41,161 nucleotides of DNA from Lophium mytilinum (Eukaryota). A program made the position numbers and the translations under genes. A model generated the notes under the pieces. The model saw only the letters and a program-made list of their open reading frames with translations. It did not search any database and was not told the origin of the DNA. The number at the start of each line of letters is the position of its first letter. The first letter of the stretch is position 1. The stretch is from positions 1,572,606-1,613,766 of the forward strand of contig MU004196.1 of assembly GCA_010093605.1 (NCBI GenBank), written 5' to 3'. This document shows positions 2,160-31,627 of the stretch, piece by piece.

Positions 2160-2280
2160 CGCTATGTGCCATTGCTTGGTGTGCTTCGATGCGCTTGCAT
2201 GAGTTCGAGCTTGATGAATACTCTTTCAATGGAGCTATCTGAAAAGTCATTGAAGCACTACAAGCAGTGGCAGCTAGGTG
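2160..2280. mobile_element. Copy of the ~122-bp palindromic MITE-like family
   Basis: Arms TGCCATTGCTTGGTGTGCTTCGA / TTGAAGCACTACAAGCAGTGGCA, TA on both flanks. Aligns without gaps to the copies at 21510 and 22860. Confidence 0.8.
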
Positions 2281-3549
2281 TACGTATATTTCCTGGTGCA
2301 CAGCGTACCACCTCTCGATCTCAGCATCGCTAGCGTGAATCTTGCGGTTCGCTACTCTCTTGAAGTTCTGATCACCATCAGCAACATACCCTGGCACGAA
2401 CCGTCAGTATCACTTCCCAATTACACCCGCCGAATCCCCAGAGTTCGTAAAATAAGTTTTTGGTCTATTTTGCCCCGTATCTGCTGTCCCACTCTATTCA
2501 GAGCCTTGTCTCACAAGTTGATCTGCCCCTCCCCTCCGCATGGAACGATGTAGTCGATGGAAATCGATCGTTCGGGCGTTCCTTGGGAGGATACAAATCC
2601 CCGTTGACCTCTCCCCTGCGTCATCAAAAGTAGCGAGAAAGGAGGGAGGTTTTATAGGCACAGGGGAGTTGAAGGAGGTATGGAGACACGTGATCGGAAC
2701 GGGCTGGATGATATCCAGTGCAAATTGGGGAAGAGCGGGAGACGCACGTGCTGTCTCCATTGCTACCGCTTGTTGGGTCTACATACCCATCGTAAACCCT
2801 TCTTTCTGTAGTTACTGATACAAAGTCCTCTCGCGAGGGGTTAAGCGAAATCCCTTAGCGATGTCACTATATGATGGTTTCGCGGCGGATGAACTCACTC
2901 AATGCGGAGACATGGTATGAAAGGGTAGGCCAATGAGAGTTACAGCCAGTCGCTCCCAAGATCTTCATCATAGCAACATCATAGTGACCCCACTAACGCC
3001 CGGTCCCTATCTTGTCTCTCAATATCTAAGAGTAACGCTACTATCACCATCTTAAATCTACGCACTCCACTCCTCTCTCAAACCCTTACCTATCATCATC
3101 ACCACACACTGCCCGTTCTCATCATGCCTCAAAACGTCTAGACACCACCTGACTCAATGCATCTCTGGACACATCTTTTCCTCTTCCCAAGCTCCCTGTT
3201 TTGTCTTTGAGCATTTGTTTGATCCCCTCCGCTCGCCCAACACCACTTCATTATTAGGAATGGAGCATGATGTTGATCCTCCGACCTCCAAAATCCGTCA
3301 TCCCCCATAGCTTAGAAGGGGCGGAAGTTCTGATCTCCGACATCGACAGTATAGCTCGCCTTTTTGCAACTCAAGAACGAAGTCTTACTCCATGACGAAA
3401 CAGAAACAGAAGTGGGCCCGTAGGCTTTTATATGCGATGATAGAGTATGCACGTGCAGGTGAGACATGCGAGCTAATTTGGGTCGTAGGTGGAAGGTTTG
3501 GGGAGCATTAGGCAGTTGAGGGCGGGGAATGGCCATGTGCGAGGCTGTA

Positions 3550-3615
3550 GCTATGAGACAGGGATCTAAATTGAGGAAAGTATGTTGGAGGGATTCAGAG
3601 AGTGGTAAAGGAGTG
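3550..3615. mobile_element. Right-arm fragment of the MITE-like family
   Basis: GGAAAGTATGTTGGAGGGATTCAGAGAGTGGTAAAGGAGTG|TA resembles the family right arm GGAAACTTGTTGAAGNACTCCAAGCAGTGGYRAACAGGTG|TA. Confidence 0.5.
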
Positions 3616-3911
3616 TACGCTGACAGGTACCTAGACCCCGCAATAACCTAGATCGCTCCTACTTCTACAGCAGCAAGCCATCTCGCTCATCGCTTAAATC
3701 CGTTCGCTAACTCCACCTAGGGTTTCTCCAGCTCGGGGTGTATTTCCCAATATGGAAACGCGCGGCCATGAAAGAGCGAACGGTATTTGTGCGATTGCAG
3801 CCAGACAGTCTATAAGAATGGAGGTCATCTCGAAGAACCCACCCGTGCTTCAGCAAGCGCTAGCACCAGATCAGTGCCACTTCTTCCATCCAAGATCCTC
3901 GATTCATCCAA

Positions 3912-4715
3912 ATGGCAACCACAATAGTCCTCATCACTGGTTAGCATGCCGAGTATATACTTAAAGTAATCTCCTAACATCATTTCCCAGGTGCCAATTC
4001 CGGCATAGGCTTCGCAACCTCAAAGGTGCTTGCCTGTGCTTCCTCCACTTTCCACATCATCATCGCCAGCCGCTCCCTCGAGAAAGCCGAAGCCGCAAAG
4101 TCCACCATCGAAGCTGCAAGCCCCAAAGGCAGCCTCTCAACCGTTGTCTTCGACGTCACAGACGAGGAATCCATCGAAGCCACCGCCGCGCTCGTCCAGC
4201 AGCAGTTCGGCCGCCTGGACGTACTAGTGAACAATGCCGGCTCAGGTAGCATGGACATGGACCTCAAGGCTCGCTTCCAGCTCTGCTTGAACACCAACGT
4301 GATAGGGCCCGCGTTGGTGGCCGCGGCATTCAGACCTTTGCTGCTGAAGTCTCAGAACCCGTACTCGATTTTCGTGAGCAGCGGTGAGAGGACGTTGACT
4401 CGGAATGCCCATGAGAAGCCTGCGAGCCATGCGGGTATCAAGAATGGAGATGCTTATCAGGTTAGCAAGGCGGCGTTGAATATGCTTGCGATACTGGAGG
4501 CGAGGGACTATGGTCCGCAGGGGCTGAAGGTGTTTGCGATGAGCCCGGGGTTCGTGCGGTCGAATCTTCGTGGGACGAGTGAGGAGGCGAGGAGTGGGTG
4601 GGGTAGAGCAGGAGATCCGGAGGTTTCGGGGGAGCTTGTGCTGAGTATAGTGGAAGGGAAGCGGGATGGGGACGTAGGGCTTTTCGTGCATCGTGATGGG
4701 GTTTATTCCTGGTGA
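3912..4715 (+). CDS. Short-chain dehydrogenase/reductase, ~250 aa; join(3912..3939,3991..4715)
   Basis: Splicing intron 3940-3990 restores the Rossmann motif VLITGANSGIGF. NNAG motif and catalytic YQVSK are present. Confidence 0.92.
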
Positions 4716-5352
4716 GGAACGAAACTTCGCGCGAGAGCGGAAGCTGTAGCTCTTTACCATAAAAGGAACTCCTCTCTATAGGTCGGGTCTTCAGCTACGT
4801 ACTTATCCACGATCTCAGATGAAAAATCTGGGTCGTTCAGATGATTGCCGAGTTCACCACGGATGTGACAGTTTCCGCTGATGAGCGTCCAACAGTCTCC
4901 ATGTCGTGGCCGACGGGTTCAAGGGGTCATGGTGCCTCGGAACACACAAGTAGCGTCTTCTTGCTGAGAGGCGTCCGGGCCTATATTAGCTACGCCATTG
5001 TCGTCGACAAGTGCGGCAGCCATGTAAACCGGTGGAGTTCTCATTTTGGAACATAGTTACAAGCGACGTTAAGTTTCAAGCTGTGCGGATTAGACGGCCT
5101 CTTGACTAACTAGCGGCTTCGCCGCCAGATTACCCCTTTAGTGGTGTTGAGTGAGCAGTAGTTGGTTTCAATTAACTTTCATTCTATATTATTCTAGGCC
5201 ATGGTACTGTCAGAGCTCGGAATCAATCATCCAGAGGGTGCGATTGAATTGATCTCGGATCTCAAGAAGTACCGACGTCCCTAGTGTTGACCCGAGATCA
5301 ACCAGGGGGTGTGATTGAATTGATTGAACCTGAGCCCGAGGTACCGTGCTTC

Positions 5353-5849
5353 TCACTCGCAGACCAATTTGACAGAATCAGTGTCGTCTCCGCTTCCCCA
5401 CCATCCACAATGGCCCAAGAACTGCCGGCCTTCTACTGCCTCCTTCCCTAAATCCTTACTACAGTCACCATCCTTGAACTTTACAACTAAACATATCATT
5501 AGGCATTAATAGCTTTATACTTGGGGGGACAGGTTCTTACAGTTACAACCCGGCTCAAGTTTAAGAACTCGTATCCCACCAAGCCGAAAACCTTTACCAG
5601 TAGTATTAGACAGCCATTCTATACCGGATATTAGCTTAAATATGATAGTCTTATAACTTGCTTCTAGGAAGCCTTACGAGTGCTTTGGCATTCTGAAAAG
5701 TATCCACCGTCGGGTTTGGGTGATCCATAAGTGAAGGTTTTGTGCTCATCTTCACGAGAACAATTCTTATTTGGATATGCAACGAAGACATTCTCTGCAA
5801 GAGCAGTAGTAGCCAGGAGAACCACAAGTGTGGCAGTGAAGGAGACCAT
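5353..5849 (-). CDS. Small secreted Cys-rich protein, 127 aa, 6 Cys (effector candidate); exons 5849-5678, 5618-5541, 5486-5353
   Basis: Signal peptide MVSFTATLVVLLATTALA. Two canonical introns (GTAAGG..GCTAAT..TAG, 59 nt; GTAAGA..CCTAAT..TAG, 54 nt) give an uninterrupted frame ending SVKLVCE*. Confidence 0.85.
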
Positions 5850-6697
5850 CTTTATCTGTGCGAGCAGTTTTGTTGATAGCAGAGCTGGAGGTATCGAGTG
5901 TGTGTAGAGTACAATCATTTGCATGCAGATGTACGTAGCTTATATAGATTGATTTGTGTGCTGATTAAGGCTCTACCATGGTACCGAGAGTGAGGTCGTC
6001 CTCGTGACCCATGACCTGTCGGGGCGTTTCCCACAGAATATTTCCACTCGGTCGAATCAATAGCCCCTAATTTGAAATAGTGACTCATACGTCTCCGATT
6101 ATATGTGTCTGATAGCTGCCTCGAATTACCTCGTAGCATGTTTCGAGATTGAGGTGACTTACTGAGGTGCACAGCCACAGCGAAAGCCACATTTGATCGC
6201 ATGGCCTAGGTAGGTACCTACACTGGTAGGATGGTCGTCTGTAATCTGGAACATACAATGAAAATTTGACTACTTGTTATCTTGAGCTTCGAAGATTACA
6301 GTGCTTCAAGTTATACGTGCTGTCTTTTTCTTCAAGAAAACTTGCCTTTCTCACTGACAAGAACATCCTAGAGTCTAGAAGGGTTTAGCTAGGACGTCTT
6401 CCCTCACACTCTGCATCGAAAAGCGCGCTCCAGCCGCCCCACCTCAAAAGGAGAAGGTAAATGTCTGCTTCAAGTCTAACCCCTCAAACCCGTACTCGAA
6501 GCGAAATGGCTCCTTGGCAGCGCGCCCTAGGGCCCGACCAAAAACCGTTGCCTGTTGCCTCTCGAAACCCAAACCAGTGAACAATTCCAGTATAAAATGT
6601 CGAAGGCAGAATTTCCCAATCTTCATTCAGTTCACATCCCACTTCCTAAAGATCCTCCCGTTGTCGTATCATTGATTCGGATTATCATTCCCCAATC

Positions 6698-8825
6698 ATG
6701 GACCCTTTCCTCACCCAAAATATAGACCGCTACCGCTCTCTGGTCGCCGCATACGCCCCTCCAGCTCGAAAGCCCGAATCTTCTATACCAAATCCGGACA
6801 TCCAAATCGGCGCCCGCATCCGCCCGATTCTGCCCGATGAAGCGGCGGAAGGGCTGGTTGCGGGTGTGTATCCACGCTCCGCGAGTTTATCGGCCATCGC
6901 AGATGTGCATGAGCTGCGGAAAAGCGTGCGAGGGCAACCTGGACTAACCGTAACTATTCCTCGCTCTCAATGAGACCACCCGATAGTAACTAAATGGGCA
7001 ATAGTCGTCCAGTTATACAGTCGACTGTGTTTTCGGCCCTGATGACTCCACTGGGGATGTTTACAAGGAGCTGGTTGAGCCCTTGGTTCCTTGGGCGTGG
7101 GGCGGTGGCGTTGGCACGCTATTTGCGTATGGGCAGACTGGGTCTGGCAAAACGTTTACGGTAACGGCGATCGAGCGATTGGTGGCGGAGCAGTTGATGG
7201 GAGGTCAATTGGAAGGAGAGAGGGAGGTACATGTCTGCATCTTCGAGCTTGCTGGGAATGTTGCTTTTGGTAAGTTGAAGTGGTCCTTTAGGCATCATCC
7301 CAAACCTTCTTTTTCGTCTTATACTACTTGGCCGTCAATCTGTGTACGCACGTTTACCACCGCTCGGAGTCTTTCGATGCGTTTTCGGACGTCTAGACTC
7401 CTTCAGCCTGAATGATCAGCAACATTCTCAAACCTCCCCAGACGGCGGCCGCTAGAGATCGCAGTTCCAAATCGGAGCACTGTATCATCTCAAAGCACAT
7501 ACCTTAGCTCCATTCCCCCACTAACACCCGCCAGACCTCCTCAACTCCCATAAACGAATCTCCATTCTCGAGGACTCCTTCGGCGCTACCCAACTCGTCG
7601 GCGCCACCGAACATACCCCCATTACCACGTCTGCACTCCTCTCCCTCATCGACAACGCTTCTGCCTTCCGCAAAACCGCCTCCACAGACCGCAACGCCGC
7701 CTCCTCCCGCACCCACGCCATGTGCCGCCTCCGCATCGCCAACCCCGCCATCCCCGCCGCCGATGACGGCCTCCTCTTCCTCGTCGACCTCGCCGGCAGC
7801 GAGGCGGCGCGGGATATTGCAGAGCACAGTGCGGATCGCATGAAAGAGACGCGCGAGATCAACACTAGTCTGTCGATTTTGAAAGACTGTATTCGTGGGC
7901 GCGCGCAGCTGGATGTGGGAGCCGGGAAGGGGAAGGCGCCGTATATCCCCTTCCGCGCCTCGGCGCTAACGAAAACGTTGAAGCACGTTTTTGATCCGGC
8001 GGGGGCGAGGGCGTGCAAGACCGCAGTAGTAGCGTGCGTGAGTCCGAGTGTGGTGGATGCGGGACCGAGTAAGAACACGCTGAGGTATGCCGAGTTGTTG
8101 CGTGTTACCATGCCGAAAGGGAGGGGGCTGGTGGAGAAAGAGAGCGTGCCGGCTAGTTGGGGCAATGAGCGGGTGCAGGAGTGGATCGGGAAGAGTGTAA
8201 GCGAGACGCGTGGATTCAATTTGCGTAAGTGTGTTTTGAGGAAGACGGCTGACATTGAAGGGAATAGTCCGGTACTCCACCGATCTCTGCGTCCCTCCTT
8301 GCGCCCACGGAGACAGGCGCCCAGCTCGTACGCCTCCCGCAGTCTCTTTTTATATCTCGATGTGAGAAAACCCCTGGAGTAAGTAGCGAGCAAGCGCTCG
8401 CATTCTACAGCAAGCTCTGGCGTCTGCACATAGACTCCCAGGCTGCCCAGACCTCCTCCGCGCCCATTCCAAGAGTAATCGCCCAAGCTGAGCCGTCGAC
8501 ACCCTTTGCGTGTCACATCCATCCAGGAATGTTCGTTCGCTACAAGCCGCCTCATCCGACTGGCCTGGACACCAATATCGCAGCTATTTTGTGCCCCGAT
8601 TGGGCCGTCGAGACCGAGGTGAAAGATTATTATGGGAAGGACGTGAAGGGGGTTAGAGGAGAGGGAGAACGACGATATCTGTGTGCCATGGTGGCACCGA
8701 GTATCATGCCCGGCGCATGGGAATTGGACCTGGGGCGGCAGTGCGTGGTAGAGGTAAGGGAAATGGAGGCGGAAGTGCTGATGGAATGGGACGTGGCGAC
8801 GAGGTACTGGTTCATGACTGTATGA
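6698..8825 (+). CDS. Kinesin motor protein (kinesin-13/DSK1-like) with C-terminal extension; join(6698..6949,7005..7269,7535..8196,8268..8825)
   Basis: P-loop FAYGQTGSGKT, switch I NAASSRTH, switch II LVDLAGSE, EINTSL, YIPFRASALTKTL. Three GT-AG introns keep the frame. Subfamily assignment is inference. Confidence 0.9.
7347..7458. mobile_element. MITE-like family copy inside kinesin intron 2 (7270-7534)
   Basis: TA|CGCACGTTTACCACCGCTCGGAGTCTTTCGATGC matches the family left arm. CCCCAGACGGCGGCCGCTAGAG is a degenerate right arm. Confidence 0.65.
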
Positions 8826-8959
8826 GGAACCCGGATTGGGCAAAAAGATGAACAGCATCGAAGATTTGTTGTAGATTTAGAAGGTTCATGTGACGTGGAA
8901 GAAAATATAGGACTCCCCGCGTTATTACTTTAGAAAACGCAACCTCCCGATTCTGCCCT

Positions 8960-10034
8960 CTAATTCGTCGCTGGCAGCACCAACGTACTCCCTGGAGGCC
9001 ATTAGCATATATACTAACTAGATTACCGTTGGAAACTCACCTCCATCTGGATACATAATCTGCTCATTGTAAAATACTCCTCCCTTACCAGCCAACATCA
9101 ACACCGTCGCCGCCATGTCCGTATCTTTCCCCGGCCTCCCTGCAGGATTACTCAACTCCTTGTTAATCACGCTCTTGTTATCCTCTCCGGATTCTCCCGT
9201 AGTCATCTCACTGGGGAACAAGCCCGGCGCAATCACATTCACCCTTACCCCAGTTTTCGCAAACGTAGCTGCAAGCGCCCGACTGAGATGAGTGGCGCCG
9301 GCTTTGCTGGTTCCGTACGCGAATTGCCCACCGCTACTGCCTTTCATAGCACCGGAGATAGAAGTCACGTTGATGATGCTGCTGGTATAACCAGGAGTCT
9401 TTTTGCCGCCCTTGGCGAGGAGCGGGAGGAAGGCCATCGAAGTGTAGAAGATGGCAGTGGTGTTGGTGCGGAATGTATCTTCCCAAGATTCCGGGGTAGA
9501 CTTTAAGAAATGCTCGGAGATCGCTGTTGGGGAAGACATGTCTGGTTCGCCAGCTTCTGAGAACTGCGTGTTCTGGTCACGTGCGATGCCGGCGTTGTTG
9601 ACGAGGAGTTGAATGCCGTCAGGTTCTTTCTTTGAGATCTCTTCTACGAGGTTGAGAATGTCCTTTTTGTCGCTTACATCACTAGTAATGGGAATAATCT
9701 CGCCGGAGCCGGAGTCGTGCTGCTTGTCGGATTGCTTGAGGACGTCGCCGCGGCGGGAGGTGATGTAGACTTTTGCGCCGTTTGCAACAAGCGCTTGGGT
9801 GATCATGAGGCCGATGCCTGTGCCACCGCCCGTCACGATGGCGGTAACGTGGGAGACATCGAAGAGTTTGGAGGACGTGAGGCTTTCGGTGTTTGACTTG
9901 CCGTCAGACATAGTGCGAATAGCAACTTTCGTGATGGGACTGAGATCGGATTGATGGACGTGTTTTGGAATAGCGTTAGATTTGGGAAAGGAAACCTGAG
10001 TGAAGACAGAAAGGCGAGCGATGAAGCGTGACAT
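8960..10034 (-). CDS. Short-chain dehydrogenase/reductase; exons 10034 (or 9911)-9041 and 8991-8960
   Basis: TGGGTGIG, NNAG, YGTSK and VNVIAPGLFPSEMT motifs. A 49-nt intron 9040-8992 (GTGAGT..GCTAAT..CAG) gives the C-terminus YPDGGSTLVLPATN*. Start is ambiguous between two in-frame ATGs. Confidence 0.9.
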
Positions 10035-10102
10035 GGTGTTCTATATGCTCTGGAATGCGGGGAAGAAGCAATGGTACTTCTGCGACTTCGATTTTCACAT
10101 CG

Positions 10103-10129
10103 TGACGTCAACGAGGTTACCGGACGTCA
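10103..10129. promoter_or_regulatory. CRE/ATF-type bZIP sites upstream of the SDR gene
   Basis: Perfect palindrome TGACGTCA at 10103-10110 and near-copy GGACGTCA at 10122-10129, 70-95 bp upstream of ATG 10034. Confidence 0.5.
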
Positions 10130-10310
10130 TAAAGGGTCCATTCCATGACAAAAGACTCCATCGCCTGCCAAAGTCGAGGAAAGGGACACACTTGGTGGGC
10201 ACGAGTCGTGATAATAGCTGGTGCGCGCGATGTTTGTAGTTGAAGTACTGATCTTGAGATAGACGCCGTGCTCCCAGCGCGCTAAGCGTCCGTTGTCATG
10301 TGATTTAGTA

Positions 10311-10432
10311 CATCTCTCTGCCAACGTCTGTGGTTGCTTAGCAAGTCTTCCGAATGTTCATATTCAATAGTGCTGATTGAGTCAGAATGGTCGAGAAGGA
10401 CTCGAGGCACCACAGGCAGCGGCAAATGGGGG
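10311..10432. mobile_element. MITE-like family copy, 122 bp
   Basis: TA|CATCTCTCTGCCAACGTCTGTGG ... GAGGCACCACAGGCAGCGGCAAATGGGGG|TA. Has an 18-bp exact match (10404-10421) to the copy at 31599-31616. Confidence 0.7.
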
Positions 10433-11306
10433 TAGGTTAGTGCTTGGCAAGGGACGAAAATATGGAAGCAACCTTAAGACAGTCGAAATGGAGAAGGTCC
10501 GTTGCCCAGCTCTGGATCGACTAGCCGTCGAATCTGGTCGCATGATTTGATACACCGTCAAAACTCCACTAGGGTTGTTCACTCGGCTTCGATCCGCGAC
10601 TCAATACCTGGAAGAACGCCGGTAAGGTATTCTCATTAACCGCCTTTACAAAAATGTGCCATAGTCGAGTTCATAGCAACGCGTTCGTGGCGCGCGAACA
10701 TTGAACCTAGGGAGTTCCCAAACTCTTGGCTGGAAAGCTCTCGCGCATGAAGCTGCTGCGCGAAATGTTTCACGTGTCGCCCACAGCCACCACGACGCCG
10801 CCCACGCCGCACCAGCCCCCACGCCGGCTGTGAAAACGATTCGCCATCACAATGCGACATAGCAAGTGGTGGCTACGCAAGGCTGCGAATACTGTGGAGG
10901 AGTACCAATGGCGGGGAACGCATCATATACGGCGCAGCGACGGTGAACTCCGAGAGGGGAGTTGCTAGGCACCGGAAAGAAGAATTTTGGTATAAGAGAA
11001 GTGGAATCGACGATAGTGAAGGATACCGCTGAGCTTTCCCCCGTTTTCTTACCATCACACCTCAGTAATCCTTGCCTTTGAACCTCTTTCGCATCGTTAT
11101 TACGTCTCATATTGCACCACCTCTTTGATTCCACCTGGCGGAGTGTCCGTCTCGTATCATCTATTCTACTCTAGAAAAAGGTTCTCGTTCTATACAACAC
11201 ACAACTCCCTTTGTGTTGAGCTTGGATATAGGCTTGTTCCTTTCCTACTCCAATACACAAGCATTCACATCTCCTTCGTGACTGCTCATCACCAACCCTA
11301 CTGGAC

Positions 11307-13785: not shown

Positions 13786-14548
13786 ATGCCGTCTCTGCTA
13801 CTTGTAGTATTCGTGCTACAGCTCGCCCTCCATCTTCTCAACAATGTCGGCGCAAGCTCCGTGAATCAGCTGGTACGCGCGCTCCCACCCATCCTCCCAC
13901 TGAATCTACTGACACGAAACAGCTATGGGTCCTGTACAACAAGCTGCCCACGCCCACCGCCGCAGGGGCCAAAAAGCAAACGATCGCCAAACGCGAAGTG
14001 ATCCGTCTAAAGCGCGAAATGGCGGGCATCTCAGCACAAGACGACTTCGCGCGGTGGGCGAAGGTGCGGCGGCAGCATGACAAGGCTGTTGCGGACTTCG
14101 AGAAGATTGGTATGCACTTATGCACTGACACTAGAAAGATCTATGCTAATGATGTGTGTTCGTGTTTTCAGACGCCAGCCTCCGCACCGCCCAAAACACC
14201 TTCAATACCACTCTCACCACTGTCCGCTGGGTCAGCACCACGGGGCTCCGCTACACACTACAGTTCTGGTATACCAAGCGCGCACTGTTTTGGATCCCGC
14301 GGGGCTGGGTGCCCGGGTATGTGGAGTGGATACTGGCGTTTCCAAGAGCACCGAGAGGGAGTATTAGTATCAATGTGTGGGACGTGGCGTGCGCGAGTTG
14401 TGTGGCCTTGGTGAGCGAAGTTGTTCTCGCTGTGTGGGCGTTGGCAGCCAAGGACAAGGCAGCAGAGAAGGGCGCACAGAATCAGGAGGGGCTAGCCATG
14501 GCGATGCCTGCGATTGAGGGGAGGCGGAATGGGAAGAAGGAGCTGTAG
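13786..14548 (+). CDS. GET1: Get1, ER tail-anchored protein insertase subunit, ~216 aa; join(13786..13872,13923..14109,14172..14548)
   Basis: N-terminal TM segment, coiled coil ISAQDDFARWAKVRRQHDK, FWIPRGWVPGYVEWILAFPRAPRGSISINVW, two canonical introns. Confidence 0.95.
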
Positions 14549-14667
14549 ATACAGCTATGGACTTCAGTTTCACGATGTTACGATAGCGGCACAGATGCAT
14601 CAATACACACACGAAACGATCTTTGAAAAACGATTGATTGTTCCCCTCCGGCAACATCCAGTCCACA

Positions 14668-14778
14668 GGTCTGTCTGCCACCGCTTGGGGTGCTTCGAAT
14701 CATGATCAGAAAAATGAAGTGTTCGTTTTGAACGACTTGGAAAGTCGTTGAGGCCCCTCAAGCGGTGGGAAACAGATG
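14668..14778. mobile_element. MITE-like family copy (~111 bp) downstream of GET1
   Basis: TCTGTCTGCCACCGCTTGGGGTGCTTCGA / TTGAGGCCCCTCAAGCGGTGGGAAACAGATG. Outer arms pair at 16/18. Confidence 0.75.
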
Positions 14779-15417
14779 TGCACCCGAGACTGACGTGGAA
14801 CCACTTCTGAACCTCCTTCAATCCTGAATTCTCTATATACAGATGTCTCTCGCCTTTTAGACGCAAAGTCCTCATAGCTGGAAAGCCAGGACCCAGCAAC
14901 ACGAGTGAGATGACCTTGGCAGGTCGTTGGGCTTATTCTTGGCGTACTTTTTGAACTCGTGAACTATGGGGAAGAAGTATCGCCGAGTCTTCGAAAGCGC
15001 CTGTATCCAGATCTACAAATTTCTACACGTCTAGCTTTTTCGCAGTATGCATCACCAATATGGATGGGTTGGAAGGCGATAGGAGGCGAGGAGCAACTGT
15101 TTGTATCGCTATAGCTTGTGTGTCGTGTGAGATGGTTGGCGAAGTGGTTGGTGTGGGATGTAAAAGTTTGAGAGGCACAAGAGGATGCGAGAAAATTGGG
15201 TAGAGGAGCGGGCCGAGAGTTTTTGCGGTGAGGCTTGGCGCGCACGTGCCCACGCTCCCGCCCCCTGACTTCTGGCCGTAATCCCAGGGCATCTCCATCC
15301 ACTTTCCTACACCAAACATAAGTATGTTTGATACGTATCAATGCCTCACATCTTGCAAGCGAAACATCTTTTCCAGCGTGATTCCATTCTTTTTTATCAA
15401 CCATAGCTTGCTTTACA

Positions 15418-16953: not shown

Positions 16954-18605
16954 AGCTATAAAGATAGGATTTGGTATTAGGGGTGATGACATAGCTGGAT
17001 GTGAGATTTTGGAGGATGAGGTTTGAGCTTTTTACTTTCAAAGAACGAGGTGGAGGGCGTAGCGTTTGGATAAGAATGAGGGGTGAGACTTGGTTGAGGT
17101 GGGAGAATCCTGAGTGGTGATGTTCGAAGCACATTCCATCCCGACCTCGATGCAAGCGGAATGTGTGGCGCTCATCGCCTCAAATGCTTGTTACTGTGGC
17201 TGAGGTCGGCTCAAGCTTCCAATGGAACCTTGGGGAGTAAGTATTTGCATATAAGGCGGACGACAATTATCACCTCTACTTTCATCTACCCGTTGAGCCT
17301 CTTATATCCTACGCTCTCTTAATGCTTGCCACCATGCCTCTCGCTTCCTCTACTAGTCCATCATCGTTGCTACATGCCCATTTCCAGCTACCAATCACCA
17401 TTTAACCCATGGAAACGCCGTCTAATACCGACCGCACTATTGGTCTGGGTCTAGAAGAGCTTTATATTGAAACCACCCCTCCCTCGTTCTTTGCGCCAGG
17501 ATCGTCTTCTTCTTTCATTTCCAACCCACAGCCCTCTCGACCACCGACTAGAAAGCAACCAGGCTAGACCTGAATAACTCCCCAAGTCCCGATATCTCAG
17601 ACTCCACCACAGACACGTGGTACAGCCTTTGAGGGATTGCGACTTGCCCACCCAACCCGCTGTCCACATCGCGAAGTTGGATTCTAGCTTTGCAGCTCCC
17701 ATCACCACTTTCGTTTACTTCCCTCACGCCCCATGTACCCTCTTTCAGAACTGGGAGTTGGAGCCAATGGGCTTTTAGCCTCCGAAGGAGTTGGAAACCA
17801 CCTAACAGACACCAGGCACTAACGTGCTCACATTCATGTAGAATGCTTGAGCTTTGAATCCACCAGGGAAGAGATGGGCACAAAACACGTGAAGTACATG
17901 TGACTCATGCGATGCGCTACTAATCTAGGGATATAAAACCTTATTTTCATTCATCATTTCCCAAGAAGCGTGGCGTTCTAGCATCGCGTGCAAACCCGAC
18001 ACTCTGACCTTCCACGGTGTTGGTGCTGTGGGAGCGTCAGTTGCTCTAGCAAACGGATGCTAGGAGCAGACCATGGGAGCGGAGGGCGTGGGAGCAAATT
18101 GGAACGAGGGGGCACATAATAAATGGCTAGGAGGCTGTGAGTTCTCTGCAATAATGATAGTTAGCATCATCCATACAATTCACTACTTAGCAACCGTGGC
18201 CCCGTAGAGTGCCTACAATTTCCAACCACACATGTCAAATCATACCCCAACTTCCACAGCTGACCTCCACCACCGATGAGCTGAGGACGTCGTCAAGCCT
18301 ACCCGCGCTCCGCCCTCCACAGGCCATAGGCAGGGGGGTCCTCCATATATGCCCCACTCCATCAATTCGTTTCATGCTCTTTTTGGATCCCCAACCTCGC
18401 CTCATCAGTCTTTATCGACGTGCAGCTGATGCTGCCGCCATCCACATCGGGTTGGGTCGTGCGGGTGTTGCTCTCCCACGAACCTTCATTGATGTTCCCG
18501 TTCTGAACCTCCACATCATGCGACGCACTCGATATTTTCGATCTCCAAATCCCCTATCTGCTTCCATGGTGCTGAAGACTGCGGCGAAGAGGTTCTTATA
18601 TCTCG

Positions 18606-19096
18606 GAGAGGGGTGGGGGCACCTGAGGCACGTGAGACGCAAAGGATGACTTCGCCCATGGAGTGGAGATGTCATATTTCTGGGCCATATTTCCAAAAAT
18701 TGTTGGGGGATTCTGGACGGTGGTGCGAGTGTGTGAACCAATCCATGCAAGTTTCAAGCGGCCGAAGGCAAACGCGCCGTGGTGTCTAAGTACACCGCCC
18801 TACCACCGTGTCAGGTGGCTTAGGGAGGTTTCCGGTTGGTCAAAACTGTAGAGATCCTCGGGGTCTGAGTGTGCAAACAGGAGTTGAGAGACTTCAGACG
18901 ATGGTGCAAGTGTGCAGACTATTCTCTACACGTTCCATAATCGCCGAAGGTAAAAGCATCACGGCGTTTAGGCACATCGCTCTGCTACCGTCTGAGGTGG
19001 CTCCGCTTGGTTTCCGGTCGTTCAAAACCGTACAGATCGTCGGAATTTGAGCTCGCGAGAATGTACTGAGAGACGTCAGACGGCGGTAGAACGATG
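18606..19096. repeat. Tandem array of ~182-bp units (122-bp palindromic core plus ~60-bp spacer); cores end at ~18733, 18914 and 19096
   Basis: Cores 18793-18914 and 18975-19096 align ungapped at 85/122 by hand count. Spacers 18734-18792 and 18915-18974 are homologous (GCCGAAGGYAAA...GGYGTYTARG). The first core is degenerate. Confidence 0.8.
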
Positions 19097-19265
19097 TAAA
19101 GCAGAAGCAGATTGAGAGTAGAAATTGAGACCCCTCTGGAATAGAGATACCCATATCTCCGAAACCACAAACGCCATACGCCAATCCCACGCCATTACCA
19201 TGCCGTCTGAATGCCCCCGAACTGCTGAAGTAGCCCTTCCACGGCAACCCCGCCCATTTCCTCAT

Positions 19266-20862
19266 TCACACCTTCCCCCTTCCCCACCCCACCTTCATGG
19301 ACCGCACGTAGATAAAGATGCCTGCCGCAATTACCAACACAACGGCACAAAACGTCCACCCCGCCAACAACGCCCGCTGCACAATTTCCATCTTATCCCC
19401 CGGCACTGCCTTCCCCTTCAGCGCCCCAGCAATCGGACTCCCCACCAACCCGCCAAACGCCGCAAGCGTGTACGCCATGCCCATCCGCGTGCCGATTTGG
19501 GACGGATCCGCGGTTAAGTTTGCTAATATAGCCGGACTTAGCGCCGTAAGCGCGCCAGAGACGAATCCGTAGAGGCAGCTCACAGCCGATAGGGACCCCA
19601 GAGTAGTCGTCGCGTACAGGCAGAGGGCGAAGAGGGCGGCCAAGAGCGTACACGGTGTCAGTGTATTGAGGGCGCCCACGCGGTCGGCAATGTAGTTTGG
19701 AATCAGCCTCCCCACGAGGGCGCCGGCGTTCGCAATTGCGAGAAGGTAGAACGAAAAGGAGTCGGCTAGGCCGAGGAGGATGGCGTACTCGGAGATGTAG
19801 AAGTATGGGATGTAGACTGCTGTGATCATGAGGACGAAGCCGGCGGTGAAAATGGTGTACGGCAGGTCCCGGAAATGGTGGAGGTTGAAGGGCTTTGTGG
19901 GCCGTTTAGGGGGGCCGTCACGGAGGCGCATCACGGCAAGGCAGAAGGCGGTGGAGGCAAGCAGGAGGGCGGCGAGGATACGCACGGCCCAGGGGAAGCC
20001 GATGGAGTAGAATAGGTGGCGCAGCATTATGCTGTATGCGACGCCGGCTGTGGTTGCGTAAGTAGTGGGTTCATGATGCAGTACACTGTTCTGACGCCGT
20101 CTGAGGTGCTGCGAGGTGGTTTGAGGTTCGAGAAAACGAATGATGTCGGATTTCGGAAACCACGTCGGGGCACCTCAGACGGTGTCAAACGGAAGTACAC
20201 TCACCGATGTTGCTGCCAGCTGCTGCGATACCCGAACACAATGCCCTCCTCTTCTTGAACCATAGTGGAATCACGGCCTGTGATGTGAGACCTAGCATGC
20301 CCATTCCGAAGCCTACAACCACGCCTTGTAGCAAGAACAACTGCCAATACTTGGTACACTGCGCCGTAAGCAGCATGCCCAGGACTTCGAGCACCATGCC
20401 AGCCACGATAAGGCTACGTAGATATCCGGCATCGAGTGCGACTCCGACAGGCGCACCAACGCCCATTGCCAGGAAAAGCTGGACGCTTCCGATCCAAGAG
20501 ATAGAAGATGCGGACGAGGAGGGGAGGAGGACGTTCATGTAGTAGGCCTGGAAGACGCCGAAGGTATTGGTGAGGCCCCTGGTGTAAGGATTAGTGGGGG
20601 CTTTAGTTGAACATGGCGGCTGAGAGGGTGGAGGAGCTTACCAGGTGGCCGAGCACATGATGCAACTTGCAACTACCTGCAGCCATGCGGTGAGGCCGTG
20701 ATCCATGGGGGGGTCGTCAAGGGACTCTTCAGTGGCTTCTTTGGTGCCTTCTTGGACCACGGGGGTGACGGCGCCGCTCTCTTGGCCACCAGGCTTCAGC
20801 TTCATGGCAGAAGAAGCAGCGGAAGAGTCGGGATCGGTGGGATAGAGGGATGTGGATTGCAT
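19266..20862 (-). CDS. MFS transporter, monocarboxylate-porter (MCT/Mch-like) family, ~458 aa; exons 20862-20642, 20578-20205, 20047-19266
   Basis: PPMDHGLTAWLQVV..TWGLTNTFGVFQAYY, SISWIGSVQ, WFKKRRALCSGIAAAGS, GRLIPNYIADRVG, IGTRMGM, and multiple TM helices. Confidence 0.92.
20084..20195. mobile_element. MITE-like family copy inside MFS intron 2
   Basis: Arms TGACGCCGTCTGAGGTGC (20092-20109) and GCACCTCAGACGGTGTCA (20170-20187) are 17/18 complementary. TA on both flanks. Removal leaves a 43-nt intron. Confidence 0.8.
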
Positions 20863-21509: not shown

Positions 21510-21633
21510 CGCGTATGTTTGCCGCTGCTTGGAGTGCTTCAATGCATCCTCGAAAACATGAACGAGACAGAAAATCTTAGCTTTGGGCTACATGGAAACT
21601 TGTTGAAGTACTTCAAACAATGGCAAACAGGTG
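21510..21633. mobile_element. MITE-like family copy
   Basis: TGTTTGCCGCTGCTTGGAGTGCTTCAA / TTGAAGTACTTCAAACAATGGCAAACA. Ungapped 84/117 identity to 22868-22984 by hand count. Confidence 0.8.
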
Positions 21634-21842
21634 TACAATGCACGAGACAGAGTGCTTGAGAGTGCCGCTTTTCCCTGTCAAGCGTGGAAGGATCCCTACT
21701 TTTAGTAGATGCAGACGCCGACCCGCTGGACATTCCTGATCGGACGTAACTCCCCGTCCATTGGCACGTGTCTTCGAAGAGGGTATATTTACAAGTATAC
21801 ACTATTCTTACAAATGCCTCCCTAAATATACGCAAACTGGCC

Positions 21843-22647: not shown

Positions 22648-22800
22648 GGCGGGCACTAGGGTGGAAATGAGGCAGTCGGTGGTGTTGCTGCTCCGTAGCG
22701 GATGAGGGCACTCGGGGTCTGCGCGGTGGCAGTCAATTGGCAGCGGGTGATGGCAGTGGTGATGCTGGTGAAGCTGGAGGAGGAGAATGGCCGTGGTGTT

Positions 22801-23031
22801 GAGTTTCGCGATTGTGGCCCGTGCACCCAAATCTTGCACCGCATTCTGCCTCTTCTATACACCTTTCTGCCGCTGTTTGTGGTGCTTCAGTATATTTTGA
22901 GAGATACGAGTGACATGATTACTCTGAGCTTTGGGCTATCTAGAAACTTGTTGAAGGACTCCAAGCAGTGGTGAACAGGTGTACCTATGTACGAGCTTCG
23001 CGATTGCGGCCCGTGCACCAAAATCTTGCAC
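22801..23031. repeat. 39-bp direct repeat (22801-22839, 22993-23031) bracketing a 122-bp MITE-like core (22860-22981) in the RSM25/PPR divergent promoter
   Basis: GAGYTTCGCGATTGYGGCCCGTGCACCMAAATCTTGCAC occurs twice (36/39), period 192 bp. Core reads TA|CACCTTTCTGCC...GGTGAACAGGTG|TA. Confidence 0.9.
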
Positions 23032-23176
23032 GCCTCCCGATCCTCAACACCACCAAAGCTATCACGACCCCCCCGGCGCCATTGACGGCCTCACGCCTGT
23101 ATTATAGCTCTACCCGCCCCTCTCGCCCATGGATTCCGCGGCGCCGACCTCTCCCTGACACAATGCGCGGCGTCTC

Positions 23177-25021: not shown

Positions 25022-26754
25022 TAGGATGAGATGTAAGATCTATAGAGCTGCGGCTATGCGGTCTGTATATACTGTACATTTACGCTAGATCTTTTGCATC
25101 ATTGAAAGCCGCATAAGAGATGGAGGTTGTAGGATATGAATGTATGATTCCTGCATATACCCACATCTGACTCTCTTCCTTACCACCGAAACCTCCTCGA
25201 AGCACTCCACGCGCCACCAAACCCATACCACCAAGTTACTCTCCCCGTCCTGTGCCTGGCACGTCAGTCTAGCGCAAATTACTACCTCCGTTCCCATCTC
25301 TCCTGAATATATATGAACCCCTCTCTCCCCTCTTTTTCCAACTCCGCCAGAGCAGTTGCACGTCGTTTTGCTCCCGACTTCCCTCCATTCGTCATCTCTG
25401 CCTCTATTATTAAAGCTGCCAATACTCCTCATCCCGACATGACAGATCATCAGGGGCCAGTTTGATCCTTCGCCATGGTTGGTTTGCATATTTTGTATTG
25501 CAGGAAGGCGGAAGCACACTGCACGATGGTGCAGAAACTAGCGAGATCTCTGCCCGATGGAGGTAGTTGAGAACTGTGGGAAGCGCCGGTGAGGTGTGGT
25601 GGTGCTCATCAGCAGCAGCTCAACGATATGACAGTTAGAACCTCATCAAGCCTTTCGGTATCGGAATAGAGGTGGTGTGGATGATCGTGATATCCTCCGC
25701 TAGCCACGAGGGGATCTCGAAGACGCTTTGGAGCAAGCAACTCCGCATGATTCTCTTCTTCTCGTGTTTTCAGAGCTCGCTGGCGTTGGCTGTGTTGGTG
25801 GGCTCTTCGAGGGTGGCGCGGCGGAAGAGATACTTTTTCAAAGACGGTGTGGTGCAATTTTGCTGGGTCACCTGATCCCCTTCCAGCGTTCGACGGCTGA
25901 GGGCGTAGTCTTTCTAGGGGGAGAAGAGGTTCACGTGCGGCATGTGACTCTTACGTTCCTCCGCGTTTAAAAGACCGCTCTGAGAGACTTGAGCTCTGCA
26001 GAAGACACCTCCGAAGGTTTAACTCGACCACTAAAGATCGAGTACCTCATGGCGGGGATCAAATCCTTATCACCCTTCATCCCCCCCCTTCACCCTCCCT
26101 CCCCGATGTGGGGAAGGAGGAGTGGTATATTAATAGAGTGCTTTGACAACTGATGGAGAGTCTTGGTTGGAGATTCCAGTGGTGGAGGGGAAAAGGATTG
26201 AGTGCCACTGCATGTGGGGATAAGATTCGAGGAATGATCCCACTCACGAAGAGTCCGAACTGTGGAGATTGGGGTCTGGATTCGCGTGTCGGCGATGATC
26301 TGTAGCATAGTGGCATCGTGCCACTACCGCAGGTTTTCTAGGAGGGATGGAAAACAGTGCCGAGTTGCGGAGATTCTTCGTGGTGGAGGGGATTGGTGGC
26401 GATGAGTATCGTGTCGATGTAATGATATGGAGATAACCAGAGGACCACCGCCTCCACGCATGAAGCTTGACCGTGTTGTGGTCTTCAACAGCCGCAGCAT
26501 TCAAACGGGGTGTCTCAGGTTGATGCCACCATGACCCGCCGCCGATATTACCTATAGTCGCGTGGCCATGTTTGAAGAAGAAAGCCCAGCACACTGTCCA
26601 TAGATTAGAAATGGCACCGACCATCTCGAAAGTTTGCTGTTTCGCCTATGATCAGACATAGAATGTGGCTGCAATACTGTGGATGTCGTCTTGAAAGTTG
26701 TTATATGTACATTCGCCAGGTCTCTTGATTCTTCTTGAAACCCCGCCTCGAAGG

Positions 26755-27769
26755 CTACACGGAATCGTTGCGCCCTGGCGCAGATTGTCTGAACCATCGC
26801 TCCTCTTCAGCAAGGGCCATCTGAGCCCATTTCGTGGTGATGATGGCCCAGACCGCAGCCCAAACAAAGGGAATTCCCCACCCTAGGAACCGTTAGAACC
26901 CAATTTCAGAAATTCCATATGACACTCACCAATTCCATACGCAACTCCCTCATTGATGGCATACACGAGTATAGTCACAATCGTCGCCATCGCCAAGGCA
27001 CCGATGCTCCAAAAGAAGCTCAAACGAAGCAGCAAACGCCTGAACATCGGGCTGGCTTCATATCGTACATTCAGCGCCTCCCGGTAATCGACCCCGCCAC
27101 CACCATCAACAGCGACAACGTCCTCGATCAGATAATATACTGCCGGCCGGCAAACTGAGCCCCTAGCTGTCGATGAGAGGCGCACGGGAGAAGAATAGGT
27201 GCCCATGTGAAGCAACGTAACCAGCAGAAGCTGAGCGCCGACATAAAAGAGAAGGGATGACCCTGGCATTGCCATAAGGCGCACGTTTGGCCGCTCAGGC
27301 AGAGATCCGATTACGAGCTCTAGGGTTGAGACGACGAAGCCGCCGATGAAAGAGAGCTGGAAGAAGTCAAGGTAGCGGCGTGAACTACCGATGGGAGTCG
27401 CGGCCGTGTTCTTTTTCAGCAGTCGCCAGAGTCGTACAGCCCATCCCTGGATTGCGAAGATGCCTAGGATTACTTGGGTGATTGTGAAGACTGTGAGAAA
27501 TGAGCATTGGGGGTTGAAGGAAGAAAATTGAAGGCGGAGGATTTACCGGTATGGCGGTCGATGCTGGTGCCGAACCAAAGTCCGTAGAAGAGGACGATTT
27601 GAAGAACGCAGGCGACAGAGACTGTGATGCTCCAGTGGATTGCGATGGATTTCTTATGCTCGCGCAAGTTGTATGGTAGGGGAGGGGGCCCGGTCATGCA
27701 TTTATCGTCATTCGAGCTTTGGATAGACATAAGATCTTGATTGGAACCTTGAAGAGATATGAAAGACAT
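26755..27769 (-). CDS. Hypothetical multi-pass membrane protein, ~303 aa; exons 27769-27547, 27490-26930, 26882-26755
   Basis: Two canonical introns give a continuous frame with about 6 hydrophobic segments. Motifs PPPLPYNLR, RPAVYYLIEDVVAVDGGGG, YGIGWGIPFVW. Confidence 0.85.
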
Positions 27770-28589
27770 GGTGGCTAATTTGTAAGATATAACAAAGTGA
27801 TGATTCGATTGCACCGATTCTCTTCGTTTGTTTTATATATTTTGCTGCACTCCGATCCCACCGCTCGTTTGTAGAGCCACGGTTAAATAGTTGTCGATCT
27901 CCCATCTTTGCGTTGTAGATCCGGGGGCGGTGCAGAGTGTGTTCATAGTATGAACGTATAGCAGACGACGGAGCTTTCGTATCGTTGTCGTGTTCTGGCT
28001 GTGGACCGACTCTGCCGAGAGGAGTTTTGGAAGTGGGCGGAGCGGGATTGTCATGACGTGTAGTGGTAGGAAGCGAAAGTGGTAGCCTATGAATCAAACC
28101 TAATGCCGCAAGAAACAATATACACTTAGACTCTAGACCCAACTGCGAGCGAACAATTGGTAGTTCGAAAACTAGGTAGATATAAAGCTTCGGCCAGGTA
28201 CCATCACCTCCCGCCCAAGGCTGTCCGAGGCTAAGAGGATAATCATCCATCGCTGCTGAAGAAGCATTTTGCACTGCCACTTGGTTAGGGAGCCGCCAAG
28301 GCTACCACTGAACCAGGTTGCTTCAAAGTAGCCGCCAAGATCTGGGAAACATCCGCCGCGTTCCGTAACATCTATCACCCTTCATGGACCAACATCACCA
28401 CCATGTTTATGGCATGTAATATCTTCAAGGGCGGTGCCGTAGATGCAGCATAGCCCTAGAGACTTATTGCCCGCCCTAGACAGCATGATGCCCCTCATCA
28501 TCCTCCCTCCATCTCCATCTCTTCTAACCCTCTAATTGGTCAACACACACTCACCCTTTGCCGACACTACCGAGACTGCCGATTCTCAA

Positions 28590-31236
28590 ATGGAACACCA
28601 TGACAGTCCAGCCTCACAAGCTGACAATCGCCGCGTCGCCTCTGACGGCTATGTTGTGCCTCCTGCTTCCGATCTGCGGAAACGTGCAGCAGTCGCTTGC
28701 CAGACATGTCGCGACAGGAAGGTCAAATGCAATGTTACTGAATCAGGGATACCCTGTGTGAATTGCAGAAGGGACGGAATCCATTGCGATGTGAAGCGGC
28801 GGAAAAACAATCAGTGCGACAGCATATCTCTTTTGTTCTTCCTTTCGAATCACTCGCGGCTATTTCAATGTTGCTGATCAGCCAATAGAGCTCGCAGATC
28901 GCGGAGACAGGCATCACAAGATATCGGCGAAGCCGGCTTAACAGGCTTAGTCCGTAGTCTTGAAGGTACGGAAAGCCAGCTTGAGTTCGGAGCACGCAGA
29001 AATGGTAGTCTGCCTTCAGATCCTTCAATTTTATCGAATCTTTCAAACCCGTCAACATCCCCCGCGAAACTTGATCAAGCTTATGCCTACAACCCTTCAC
29101 CTCCTGGTATTCCTTCTTCGGGAACTGCTACTGTCAAAGAAAGTCAGCTGCGAGATCTCTACCCGTTTACATCGCCTGTATTTACAGACCATGATCCAAG
29201 TGTTCGATCGACGGCTATTGAAGTAGTGCTGAATGACAAGCCCTGGTCGGGAGCTGTGCCGTTTTTTGTTGGTAGGCCTTATTACCTCTAATCAAGCTTT
29301 GTGTGCCGACGCTTATTCATACAGGTGATGCTCAAGGTATAGGATATGTCCTGGATATCTTAGAGCCCGAACGCGCCAATCCTACTCCGGCCCAGCATTT
29401 CTTGATTCCTCAGTCGCTACCATCATTACTCGATCCGGACGATATCAACTACTTACGAGCGAAGGGGGTGTTCTCTTTGCCACCGTCAGAAGTCTGCGAT
29501 GAGCTCTTGCGATGCTATTTCCACCACATTCACCCAATCTTGCCTATCCTCGAAGCTGACCGCTTATTGAACGCCTACGTCGATGGCGGAGTGCAAAAGC
29601 TCAACCTCCTCTTGATATGGAGCATCTTCTCGGTAGCAGTCAACGTACGTGAGCCGAAAAACGCAAGGATAGCCTTTTGACGAGTCGCAGTACACCCGAG
29701 ACGAAGTATGCCAACGAGCTGGCTTCCAAACCCGCCGAGACATGAAGAGAGCAGCATTCTCTCGAGCCAAGGTGCGCACACGTGCCCCATCCTGCTGTTC
29801 AATCTCAATAAAAGCACTAAATATAATGGACATCTAGTGCATGTATGACAATGGTCGTGAGCAGGATAAAGTCGTGCTCGTCCAATCAACCTTACTCATG
29901 TCGTTCTGGTACTCGGACACGGAAGATCGCACCGAATCCTGGCACTGGATAGGCATCGCTATCAGCCTAGCACAAACGATGGGATTCCACCGAAATCCCG
30001 ATTCCCACCAGCGAAATAGCCGCCTCTCCGAGCGGCAGCGGCATCTATGGAGGCGGCTATGGTGGTGCTGCTTATACCGGGACCGATGGCAAAGCTTCGG
30101 TATGGGACGTCCTATGCGAATCGTGATCGAAGATTGCGACACGGCGTCGCCCTCAACAAATGACGTCCTCGTCGAAGCGGAAGGGCTCTCTGCTGCGGCG
30201 CGCAAGTTCATTCCCCACGACCTCGCACTTCTTACTAAATACTGGATGATTCTTCTAGAGCTTACTGCGACTTTGGGAATCATTTTGGCTGGACAGTGGC
30301 GTCGGCATACGCCATTGATCGACACCACGTCGGCGAATACCCTGGATAAGCAGCTTTCCACCGCCATGGGTTCACTCTCCAGCGGACTTATGACTCCGCA
30401 GTCGTCCTTTGCCTCCTTCTACGAAAACCTTCTACAGCTGCATCATTCGTGAGCTCAAACCATCTCCGAATCCATCCAAGTCCGTCTGACATCCGTAGGG
30501 CCGCTATCGTAGCATTACTTAGGCCGTACGACAGGGAAGGTGAACAACCGTGGGGTGCTTTTGGGAAAAGTGCGACGCAGAAGATCAGAGAGGCGGCGTC
30601 AAAAATAAACCTGACTCTCGACGCGATCTTCATTGCCGGCCTTACCAACTACATCGGTCCCATGGCGTAAACACACCCAGCAACGACGCAACTAACTGTA
30701 TGCTGACGCGTACATTCAGGATTCCCCTCATCGTCCCAGCCATGCACACGCACCTTCTCGACCTCCGCAGCCCCGAGAATCTTGTCCGACAGATGGCATC
30801 GAACAAGCTTGCCTTTTGTATGACGGTGATGGACGAACTCAAAGCGCTCTATCCAGCCGCGAGCTTCATTCACGACCTTTTCGGCCGAGCGAAGCTAAAT
30901 CTCGAAACCCAGCAATCGCCGTCTGAACTCCACGCGCAACGAATACGCATACCTTTCGGAGCTCGCATGTCTACCGAATTCGAGACGCCGCAGTCGACTT
31001 CGGTGACTACGGCTGGAGAGTTGCCGCTTTTGTTCAACGACTCTACGCTCTTTGATTTCTGGGACCCGAATTCTATATTCCCATATAGCTTCTCTGCGTA
31101 GGTTTGCCTGGGGTTTGGGTGATCGCAGCTAATTGGATTCAGGGCGACCGATGTGCATGCGGATGTGAACCGAGCAGTGGGATATAATGAGTTTGAGGAC
31201 ACTTTTTCGAGTATGTGGGCAAGTGGGCAAATGTGA
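28590..31236 (+). CDS. Zn(II)2Cys6 transcription factor with fungal-specific TF domain (CTF1/Far-like), about seven introns
   Basis: RAAVACQTCRDRKVKCNVTESGIPCVNCRRDGIHC, YLRAKGVFSLP, YFHHIHPILPIL, WHWIGIAISLAQTMGFHR, RRLWWCCLYRDRW. End is 31236 if intron 31098-31143 is spliced, otherwise 31101. Confidence 0.9.
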
Positions 31237-31364
31237 AGGTTCCGTCGATTGCACCGAAAGGCTTGAATGTAGCCCCGTGAACCTGCGATGGATACATGAG
31301 AAGAGAAGTCACTCAATAGTGATCTCTCGGCCCAGCCACGCTAGACCAAAAAAATGCGCACAAT

Positions 31365-31627
31365 CAGGCGGTCCATCCCCATCTGAGGTGCCCTAGAGAG
31401 CTTCTAGGCTTGCCAAAGCTGGTATTGATGCCGTACGGGTTTTTGGAGTGCCAATTCTACTACCGCTCATCTACCATACTGCTTTATGGCTGTTCTACTT
31501 ACTTGCACCGATATGCTACTGCTTAGAGTGCCTCAATAAGTTTCCCTATAGCGCAAAGCTAAGATTTTCTATCTTGTTCATAGTTCTCAAAATGTACTGA
31601 GGCACCACAGGCAGCGACAGGCAGGGA
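31365..31627. mobile_element. Two adjacent MITE-like family copies (degenerate ~31365-31480; clear 31506-31627)
   Basis: 31503-31619 aligns ungapped to the reverse complement of 21520-21636 (e.g. CAAAGCTAAGATTTTCT). The upstream copy has CATCTGAGGTGCCC..GCTTCTAGGCTTGCCAAAGCT. Confidence 0.75.

Follow-up and report, generated by a model that had tools for sequence, protein, structure and literature searches.

A diverged family of TA-flanked inverted-repeat elements in gene-dense ascomycete DNA, probably an old Stowaway-like group of miniature transposable elements

Stowaway-like MITEs (miniature inverted-repeat transposable elements) of plants, animals and fungi comprise non-coding, TA-flanked sequences of ~80-300 bp whose entire length can fold into a hairpin by way of terminal inverted repeats (TIRs), and they are enriched in the non-coding parts of gene-rich DNA and carried in untranslated regions (UTRs) and introns. 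Mimps, the miniature impala elements, are at least ~200 bp long and are associated with effector promoters on accessory chromosomes. The mimps of Fusarium are described as Tc1/mariner-type MITEs lying beside genes (PMC3599309, PMC5579170). For Epichloe festucae, Fleetwood et al. (2011) report many degenerate MITE families (EFT-xm) located near genes, with mean pairwise identities of 49-90% and, in several families, TA duplications and repeats of 24-43 nt, as well as the Toru family, which is 135 bp long with an AT duplication and CTCC termini (PMC3227409). Here, we describe ten short, TA-flanked, hairpin-forming elements in a 41,161-nt stretch of filamentous ascomycete DNA (hereafter the window, to which copy counts, densities and searches refer unless stated otherwise). 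These copies were listed in a first-pass annotation of the window, which regarded them as a MITE-like family under possible structural constraint. We think it probable that they form an old and mostly dead Stowaway-like MITE family which inserted at TA dinucleotides and was most likely mobilized by a transposase of the Tc1/mariner superfamily.

That the ten copies belong to a single family, as the first-pass annotation held, is established by homology searches. When aligned with MAFFT, the ten stretches yielded a clear two-armed consensus, and in leave-one-out searches with nhmmer all ten were recovered at E values of 1e-10 to 1e-21, with no other match at E<0.01. A covariance model that included the arm pairing was applied to both strands without filters and returned the same ten copies only (next match, E 0.59), such that the model-based search suggested with that annotation, carried out over the window, recovers exactly the listed set. 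Five copies measure exactly 122 nt, as had been reported, and the full range is 111-124 nt (Table 1). The inverted arms, originally put at ~30 bp, extend over ~33 nt in the alignment (columns 11-43 and 104-136); they start with CAC(C/T) and follow the approximate consensus CACCTnTCTGCCRCYGYTTGRRGTGCTTC. Across the 33 arm column pairs, 76.9% of the cells are paired, as compared with 35-44% after sliding by 1-3 columns. The copies lie in the gene-dense GC compartment of the window (bases 1-33,000, ~52% G+C), where the five longest short-range inverted repeats include four family members and the six longest include five. In total they occupy 1,190 nt, or 3.6% of this 33-kb compartment, which corresponds to one copy per 3.3 kb. 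They matched no protein family and no RNA family, and they have no coding capacity. Beyond the window, a scan of metagenomes with the arm pattern identified 59 loci, and nhmmer gave six weak partial matches (E ~6e-4 to 8e-4) consisting mostly of the pattern itself; four metagenome loci were inspected and displayed no convincing two-armed element. These matches are due to chance, and no relatives were obtained from this source.

Table 1. Positions and properties of the ten family copies, the tandem array and a probable relic in the window
Feature	Positions	Strand	Length (nt)	Setting and remarks	Leave-one-out E	Fold z
c2160	2160..2280	+	121	TA both sides; intergenic, 400 nt downstream of ORF 192-1760	3.4e-17	-5.88
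c7347	7347..7458	+	112	decayed; in intron of kinesin-like gene	2e-11	-0.05
c10311	10311..10432	-	122	opposite orientation; upstream of minus-strand short-chain dehydrogenase gene (ORF 9018-10040)	1.1e-14	-3.45
c14668	14668..14778	+	111	254 nt downstream of Get1/CHD5-like ORF	6e-16	-6.90
c18793	18793..18914	+	122	hairpin decayed; downstream of MFS gene stop	2.8e-11	-0.70
c18975	18975..19096	+	122		6.1e-16	-3.43
c20084	20084..20195	+	112	nearly perfect hairpin; in intron of minus-strand MFS gene	1.5e-10	-10.82
c21510	21510..21633	+	124	210 nt downstream of MRP-S25 stop (21843); most abundant subgroup	2.5e-21	
c22860	22860..22981	+	122	TA both sides; between MRP-S25 and PPR gene	6.7e-21	-4.47
c31506	31506..31627	-	122	opposite orientation; hairpin decayed; intergenic	5e-20	-0.50
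Tandem array	18579..19124	+		three ~182-bp units: relic 18606-18733, c18793 and c18975
Relic	31365..31480	+		probable degenerate copy beside c31506; local alignment to c18793 scores 16, 0/200 shuffles as good

The family is much older than the first-pass annotation supposed. The ~70% identity quoted there applies to the best pairs; over all 45 pairs, identity averages 52% (range 37-70%) and reaches at least 65% in only five. The gap-free alignment noted at the same time holds for the arms, which show 0.2 gap letters per pair alongside ~27 mismatches, but not for the middle, which shows 5.8 and is shorter by 10-11 nt in three copies as judged from alignment gaps. Identity is highest in the arms (59%), lower in the middle (44%) and lowest in the flanks (26%). 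Orthologous non-coding DNA of another organism (designated X4) carries 11 gap letters with 33 mismatches in one stretch and 7 with 24 in another. The middle thus takes up indels at about the ratio of orthologous non-coding DNA, and the length retention emphasized in the first-pass annotation reduces to indel-free arms; in terms of indels, the middle is roughly neutral and the arms are not. Where the arms depart from the consensus, transitions are symmetric in direction (A>G 35, G>A 36, C>T 33, T>C 25), and the transition/transversion ratio of ~2 resembles the 68:31 found between the window and X4.

The middle also makes the copies orientable and resolves them into subgroups. Two copies, c31506 and c10311, lie in the opposite orientation to the others; c31506, for example, aligns with c21510 as a 114-nt inverted match of 74%, and its middle scores 33 in the opposite orientation vs 2 in the same one. 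Middles are recognizably related only within subgroups, which share their arms and have largely unrelated middles. The first subgroup consists of c21510, c31506, c22860, c14668 and c2160, and the second is the pair c18793 and c18975, which are 69% identical. At four arm column pairs, switches from C:G to T:A follow the subgroups. We considered repeat-induced point mutation (RIP) or deamination, acting through parallel transitions, as the source of these column changes and rejected it, as the changes are symmetric and bear no one-way signature. A full palindrome, in which two full-length long repeats are joined, was likewise rejected: without their arms the middles are not self-complementary (scores of 0-8, null 99th percentile 7), and only that of c10311, with a score of 8, exceeds the percentile.

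The second subgroup belongs to the tandem array of Table 1, in which direct repeats are spaced at 182 bp (an element plus a ~60-bp spacer) and the motif GCCGAAGG recurs. Rather than three insertions, c18793, c18975 and the relic at 18606-18733 represent one 182-bp unit triplicated locally in tandem. The oldest unit of the array is indel-rich, and the two younger elements have kept 122 nt. This relic is one of three degenerate pieces that had been reported in addition to the ten copies, none of which was found by nhmmer at E<0.01 or by the covariance model. Two of them nevertheless withstand comparison with shuffled sequences: the relic at 18606-18733, with a right arm identical at 24 of 32 positions, aligns to c18793 better than all 200 shuffles, and so does the piece at 31365-31480, for which nhmmer returned only E 1.8 and the covariance model no match. 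The third, at 3550-3615, does not, as 14 of 200 shuffles reach its score.

The ends of the copies give an indication of how they moved. TA lies outside 12 of the 20 ends (binomial P 3e-12, given that TA has a frequency of 0.0425 in the GC compartment), in agreement with the earlier description of arms usually flanked by TA, and among the eight other ends seven are one base away from a TA. A 2-bp TA at both ends is the classical signature of Tc1/mariner and Stowaway elements. The TA would accordingly represent a target-site duplication, and the transposase superfamily is probably Tc1/mariner, the type named in the first-pass annotation and the simplest assignment for a short, non-coding, multi-copy family with TIRs. 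By eye, the base triplets flanking the two sides of each copy are different in all ten, so a 3-bp duplication does not fit, and the flanks around the copies display no consistent direct duplication of 3, 8 or 9 bp.

Several observations nonetheless speak against this interpretation. No empty site was seen, the site of c14668 in X4 being filled, so the TA could instead form the last pair at the outer end of the repeat itself. By eye, a G precedes the left TA in six of the ten copies and a C follows the right TA in five; the palindrome thus seems to reach G-TA...TA-C in about half of the copies, a pattern that could reflect either a GTAC target preference or longer ends. The window, moreover, encodes no DDE transposase among its 15 long open reading frames (ORFs) or in a six-frame Pfam scan of the AT-rich block (AT block) that adjoins the GC compartment. 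On these grounds the copies might be MITEs of another superfamily, or the TA might belong to the terminal repeat, in either of which cases the Tc1/mariner assignment would be wrong. There is some precedent, in that three Epichloe MITE families with 2-bp AT duplications were left unassigned by Fleetwood et al. (PMC3227409). Given the classical character of the TA signature and the lack of a consistent longer duplication in the flanks, we regard this alternative as unlikely. A further difficulty lies in the arms, whose shortage of gaps relative to orthologous non-coding DNA is not explained by neutral decay after insertion alone, and in the retention of exactly 122 nt by half of the copies despite middles that can barely be aligned. 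Gap-free arms at 41% divergence are the least well explained feature of the family.

With respect to genomic placement, none of the ten copies overlaps a coding exon, and two lie inside longer introns. The transcript evidence used here comes from contigs of a run that is not recorded as RNA but is judged to be so by its behaviour, namely six GT..AG or CT..AC skips of 49-71 nt with zero mismatches; it covers only those parts of the window that these contigs reach, which excludes, for example, 17442-18108. A kinesin-like gene that carries GQTGSGKT and DLAGSE motifs harbours c7347 in a coding intron of 265 nt (~7269-7533), the ends of which lie 78 and 75 nt away from the element. Positions 7268 and 7534 are joined in an RNA contig with GT..AG borders, and the reading frame remains open across the joint. 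The copy c20084 is located in a 157-nt intron (20048-20204) of a minus-strand MFS transporter gene, in which profile positions 29-132 of MFS_1 are matched up to where the upstream exon ends and the match is taken up again at 144 in the downstream exon. The 5' splice site of this intron (G|GTGAGT) and its 3' splice site lie outside the element by 9 and 36 nt, respectively, and removal of the element together with one TA leaves a plausible intron of 43 nt. In Dothideomycetes, introner-like elements are known as long introns present in many near-identical copies (PMC4457414), and the two intronic copies brought up the idea that the family consists of such introns multiplying as whole units. We consider this highly improbable and rejected it: the element is not the intron in either case, splice sites being external to both copies, eight of the ten copies are not in introns at all, a working intron would seem to remain after excision of c20084, and the copies are far from near-identical.

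Copies are also represented in transcripts and in other DNA. An RNA contig covering 14171-15030 includes c14668, and the same site is spanned, with the element in place, by an X4 contig that covers 14254-14888 and differs over these 635 nt by 33 mismatches and 11 gap letters, so that this insertion seems to predate the split of the two organisms; a second X4 contig at the site is ambiguous. Among contigs that overlap position 21591, within c21510, at a likeness of at least 80%, 20 come from the probable source DNA run, 13 are RNA contigs and 4 belong to X4. The family is therefore dispersed, occurs in transcripts and extends to a second organism. At this likeness, close paralogues of the other copies are few or absent, which fits an old, heterogeneous family. 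The copy c22860 occupies a 530-nt divergent region between the ATG of the MRP-S25 gene (22647, minus strand) and that of the PPR gene (23177, plus strand). The copies c2160, c10311, c18793, c18975 and c31506 lie between genes. Around c10311, RNA contigs stop at 10222 and restart at 10389.

From the strict length of the copies, the first-pass annotation had surmised a structural or functional constraint on the hairpin, and it had put forward arm covariation as a way of checking this. Seven of the ten copies indeed fold far better than dinucleotide shuffles (z -3.4 to -10.8), and the fold has been lost in c7347, c18793 and c31506. When partners were shuffled among the copies, however, 74.7% of cells in the 33 arm pairs were still paired, and 27 of 500 shuffles were as high as the observed value; similarly, the covariation score was 0.302 vs 0.267 for shuffled partners (34 of 500 as high), and the 'further pair types' measure fell below the shuffled mean. 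In trials, related sequences attained such values without constraint. The two arms of a copy are 64% complementary, vs 59% for arms drawn from different copies (589 of 20,000 permutations), and with G-T pairs allowed the values are 76% vs 75% (2,611 of 20,000 permutations). As own arms are hardly more complementary than shuffled partners, arm complementarity arises from the likeness of each arm to the shared family consensus, not from copy-specific compensation. Among these ten copies the copy-specific covariation signal stays within the shuffle range, and the surmised constraint is unsupported.

The elements, or a subset of them, might still be kept by selection as a structure, for example as a DNA cruciform, as a hairpin RNA such as a Dicer substrate within UTRs and introns, or as a paired protein-binding site at gene borders. 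Such selection would be consistent with arms that remain gap-free, with the arm pairs G28:C119 and G35:C112 that are invariant in all ten copies, with the strong folds of the majority, and also with the occurrence of the family in RNA contigs, the spanned c14668 site in X4 and the high density in the GC compartment. Conserved arm positions are, however, predicted equally well by transposase binding, and the weak pairing and covariation excess, the small advantage of own over chimeric arms, the three lost folds, the indel decay of the tandem sister unit and the lack of any Rfam match for the copies at E up to 1 together make this explanation improbable in our estimation. We are as doubtful about the related proposal that many of the copies were co-opted as sites of paired protein binding or of hairpin formation at gene borders and in introns, which would keep the arms gap-free with fixed contact positions. 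If one copy per 3 kb held across the gene-rich compartment, the family would amount to the order of 10,000 copies and constitute the densest fungal MITE landscape described; it would also supply a large source of ~50-bp double-stranded RNA hairpins within transcripts.

In the explanation that we prefer, that of an old MITE family, each copy would derive from a non-autonomous, cut-and-paste DNA transposon with ~33-nt TIRs that inserted at TA dinucleotides and was mobilized by a Tc1/mariner-superfamily transposase encoded elsewhere or now lost. Insertions would have survived only in non-coding DNA, be it intergenic, UTR-like or intronic, and would be carried passively in transcripts. The hairpin would be a by-product of two transposase-binding ends. 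The arms may be better conserved and gap-free because they were selected for transposase recognition while the lineages were active, copies with broken arms no longer being recognized, and the middle would have been free to diverge. Ascertainment may be a second cause of gap-free arms, in that indel-bearing units would come to notice only as degenerate pieces; the oldest unit of the tandem array shows exactly such indel decay. The copies, short and diverged, bear no sign of RIP, unlike the long retroelement next door.

Regarding RIP, the first-pass annotation correctly took these short repeats to be unaffected, as the copies carry no RIP signature. Their indices (TpA/ApT 0.67; (CpA+TpG)/(ApC+GpT) 1.25) agree with the values of 0.72 and 1.19 obtained for the GC compartment; for the AT block they are 1.77 and 0.06. 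A length of 122 bp is assumed to lie below the RIP length threshold of this organism. From ~33.5 kb onward, where the AT block begins, G+C drops to 22-25%. On the minus strand of the block (33500-41161), a six-frame Pfam scan with stops read as X detected reverse transcriptase (RT), RNase H and Tf2-1 SH3 domains, the only transposon-protein domains found in the window. Judging from its domains and base composition, the AT block is a RIP-degraded retroelement of the gypsy/Ty3 type.

The identification of the window as filamentous ascomycete DNA is accompanied by domains on its long ORFs that include Fungal_trans, PPR, MRP-S25, MFS, prenyltransferase-alpha, CHD5/Get1 and short-chain dehydrogenase. 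The 614-aa PPR protein has its closest named relative in Mytilinidion resinicola (85% identity), followed by other Dothideomycetes at ~50%; our search of a literature library found no paper linking Mytilinidion with MITEs. Several features separate from the family were recorded in the same DNA. The product of ORF 192-1760 is a Ser/Thr-rich protein of 522 aa without a Pfam domain, and the ORF contains, at 947-1147, a 39-bp tandem repeat of 4.3 copies with a 75% match. A second, unrelated TA-flanked palindromic element of ~137 nt, with the ends CTGTCAGAGCTC...GAGCCCGAGG, is present at 5205-5345; it is matched by other contigs, its RNA-contig depth is ~1,050 vs ~250 nearby, and its fold z is only -0.76 relative to shuffles. 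A further dispersed repeat occupies 5466-5983; its match in a 16.6-kb source-run contig has 68 mismatches and 29 gap letters, and G+C falls to 45% in the 5001-6000 bin, which covers this repeat. At 11161-11254, a stretch of 84-92 nt with non-intron ends (TA..CC, TA..AA) is missing from DNA and RNA contigs; these skips may represent an indel polymorphism or another small mobile element. Finally, both strands contribute introns to a single RNA contig over 7534-10222 (GT..AG at 8196/8268, CT..AC at 8990/9040), so the kinesin-like gene and the convergent dehydrogenase gene seem either to have overlapping transcripts or to have had their contigs merged.

The family adds an ancient group of MITEs to a little-studied Dothideomycete lineage, and the window presents, side by side, short diverged repeats without RIP marks and an adjoining long retroelement that has been destroyed. 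It is also relevant for annotation, in that copies reside in UTR-like regions and introns and RNA contigs break around one of them. Its importance would grow if function or a genome-wide invasion lay behind the gap-free arms or the local density.

Among known systems, the family resembles the Stowaway-like and other Tc1/mariner MITEs in its short, non-coding sequence, TA flanks, hairpin-forming inverted repeats and non-coding placement; it departs from them in the unusual divergence of the window copies and in its CAC(C/T) termini, which were matched to no catalogued family. The introner-like elements of Dothideomycetes share with it the fungal class and the occurrence of repeated short elements in introns, but the family described here is mostly intergenic and is defined by TA-flanked inverted repeats rather than being itself the intron. 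The mimps of Fusarium may be viewed as a functional analogue, a likeness drawn from description. Toru, which is of similar size, was considered as the same family and rejected, its AT duplication and CTCC ends differing from TA and CAC(C/T), a distinction that follows the published description and not consensus sequences. The closest documented fungal parallel that we found is provided by the EFT families of Epichloe festucae, which likewise occur in a genome with RIPed AT blocks, are comparably degenerate and in several cases have TA duplications, although their host belongs to a different fungal class. The copies thus appear to represent a previously uncatalogued member of an ordinary kind of MITE, set apart from the described families by the descriptions of these, rather than a conserved structural element.

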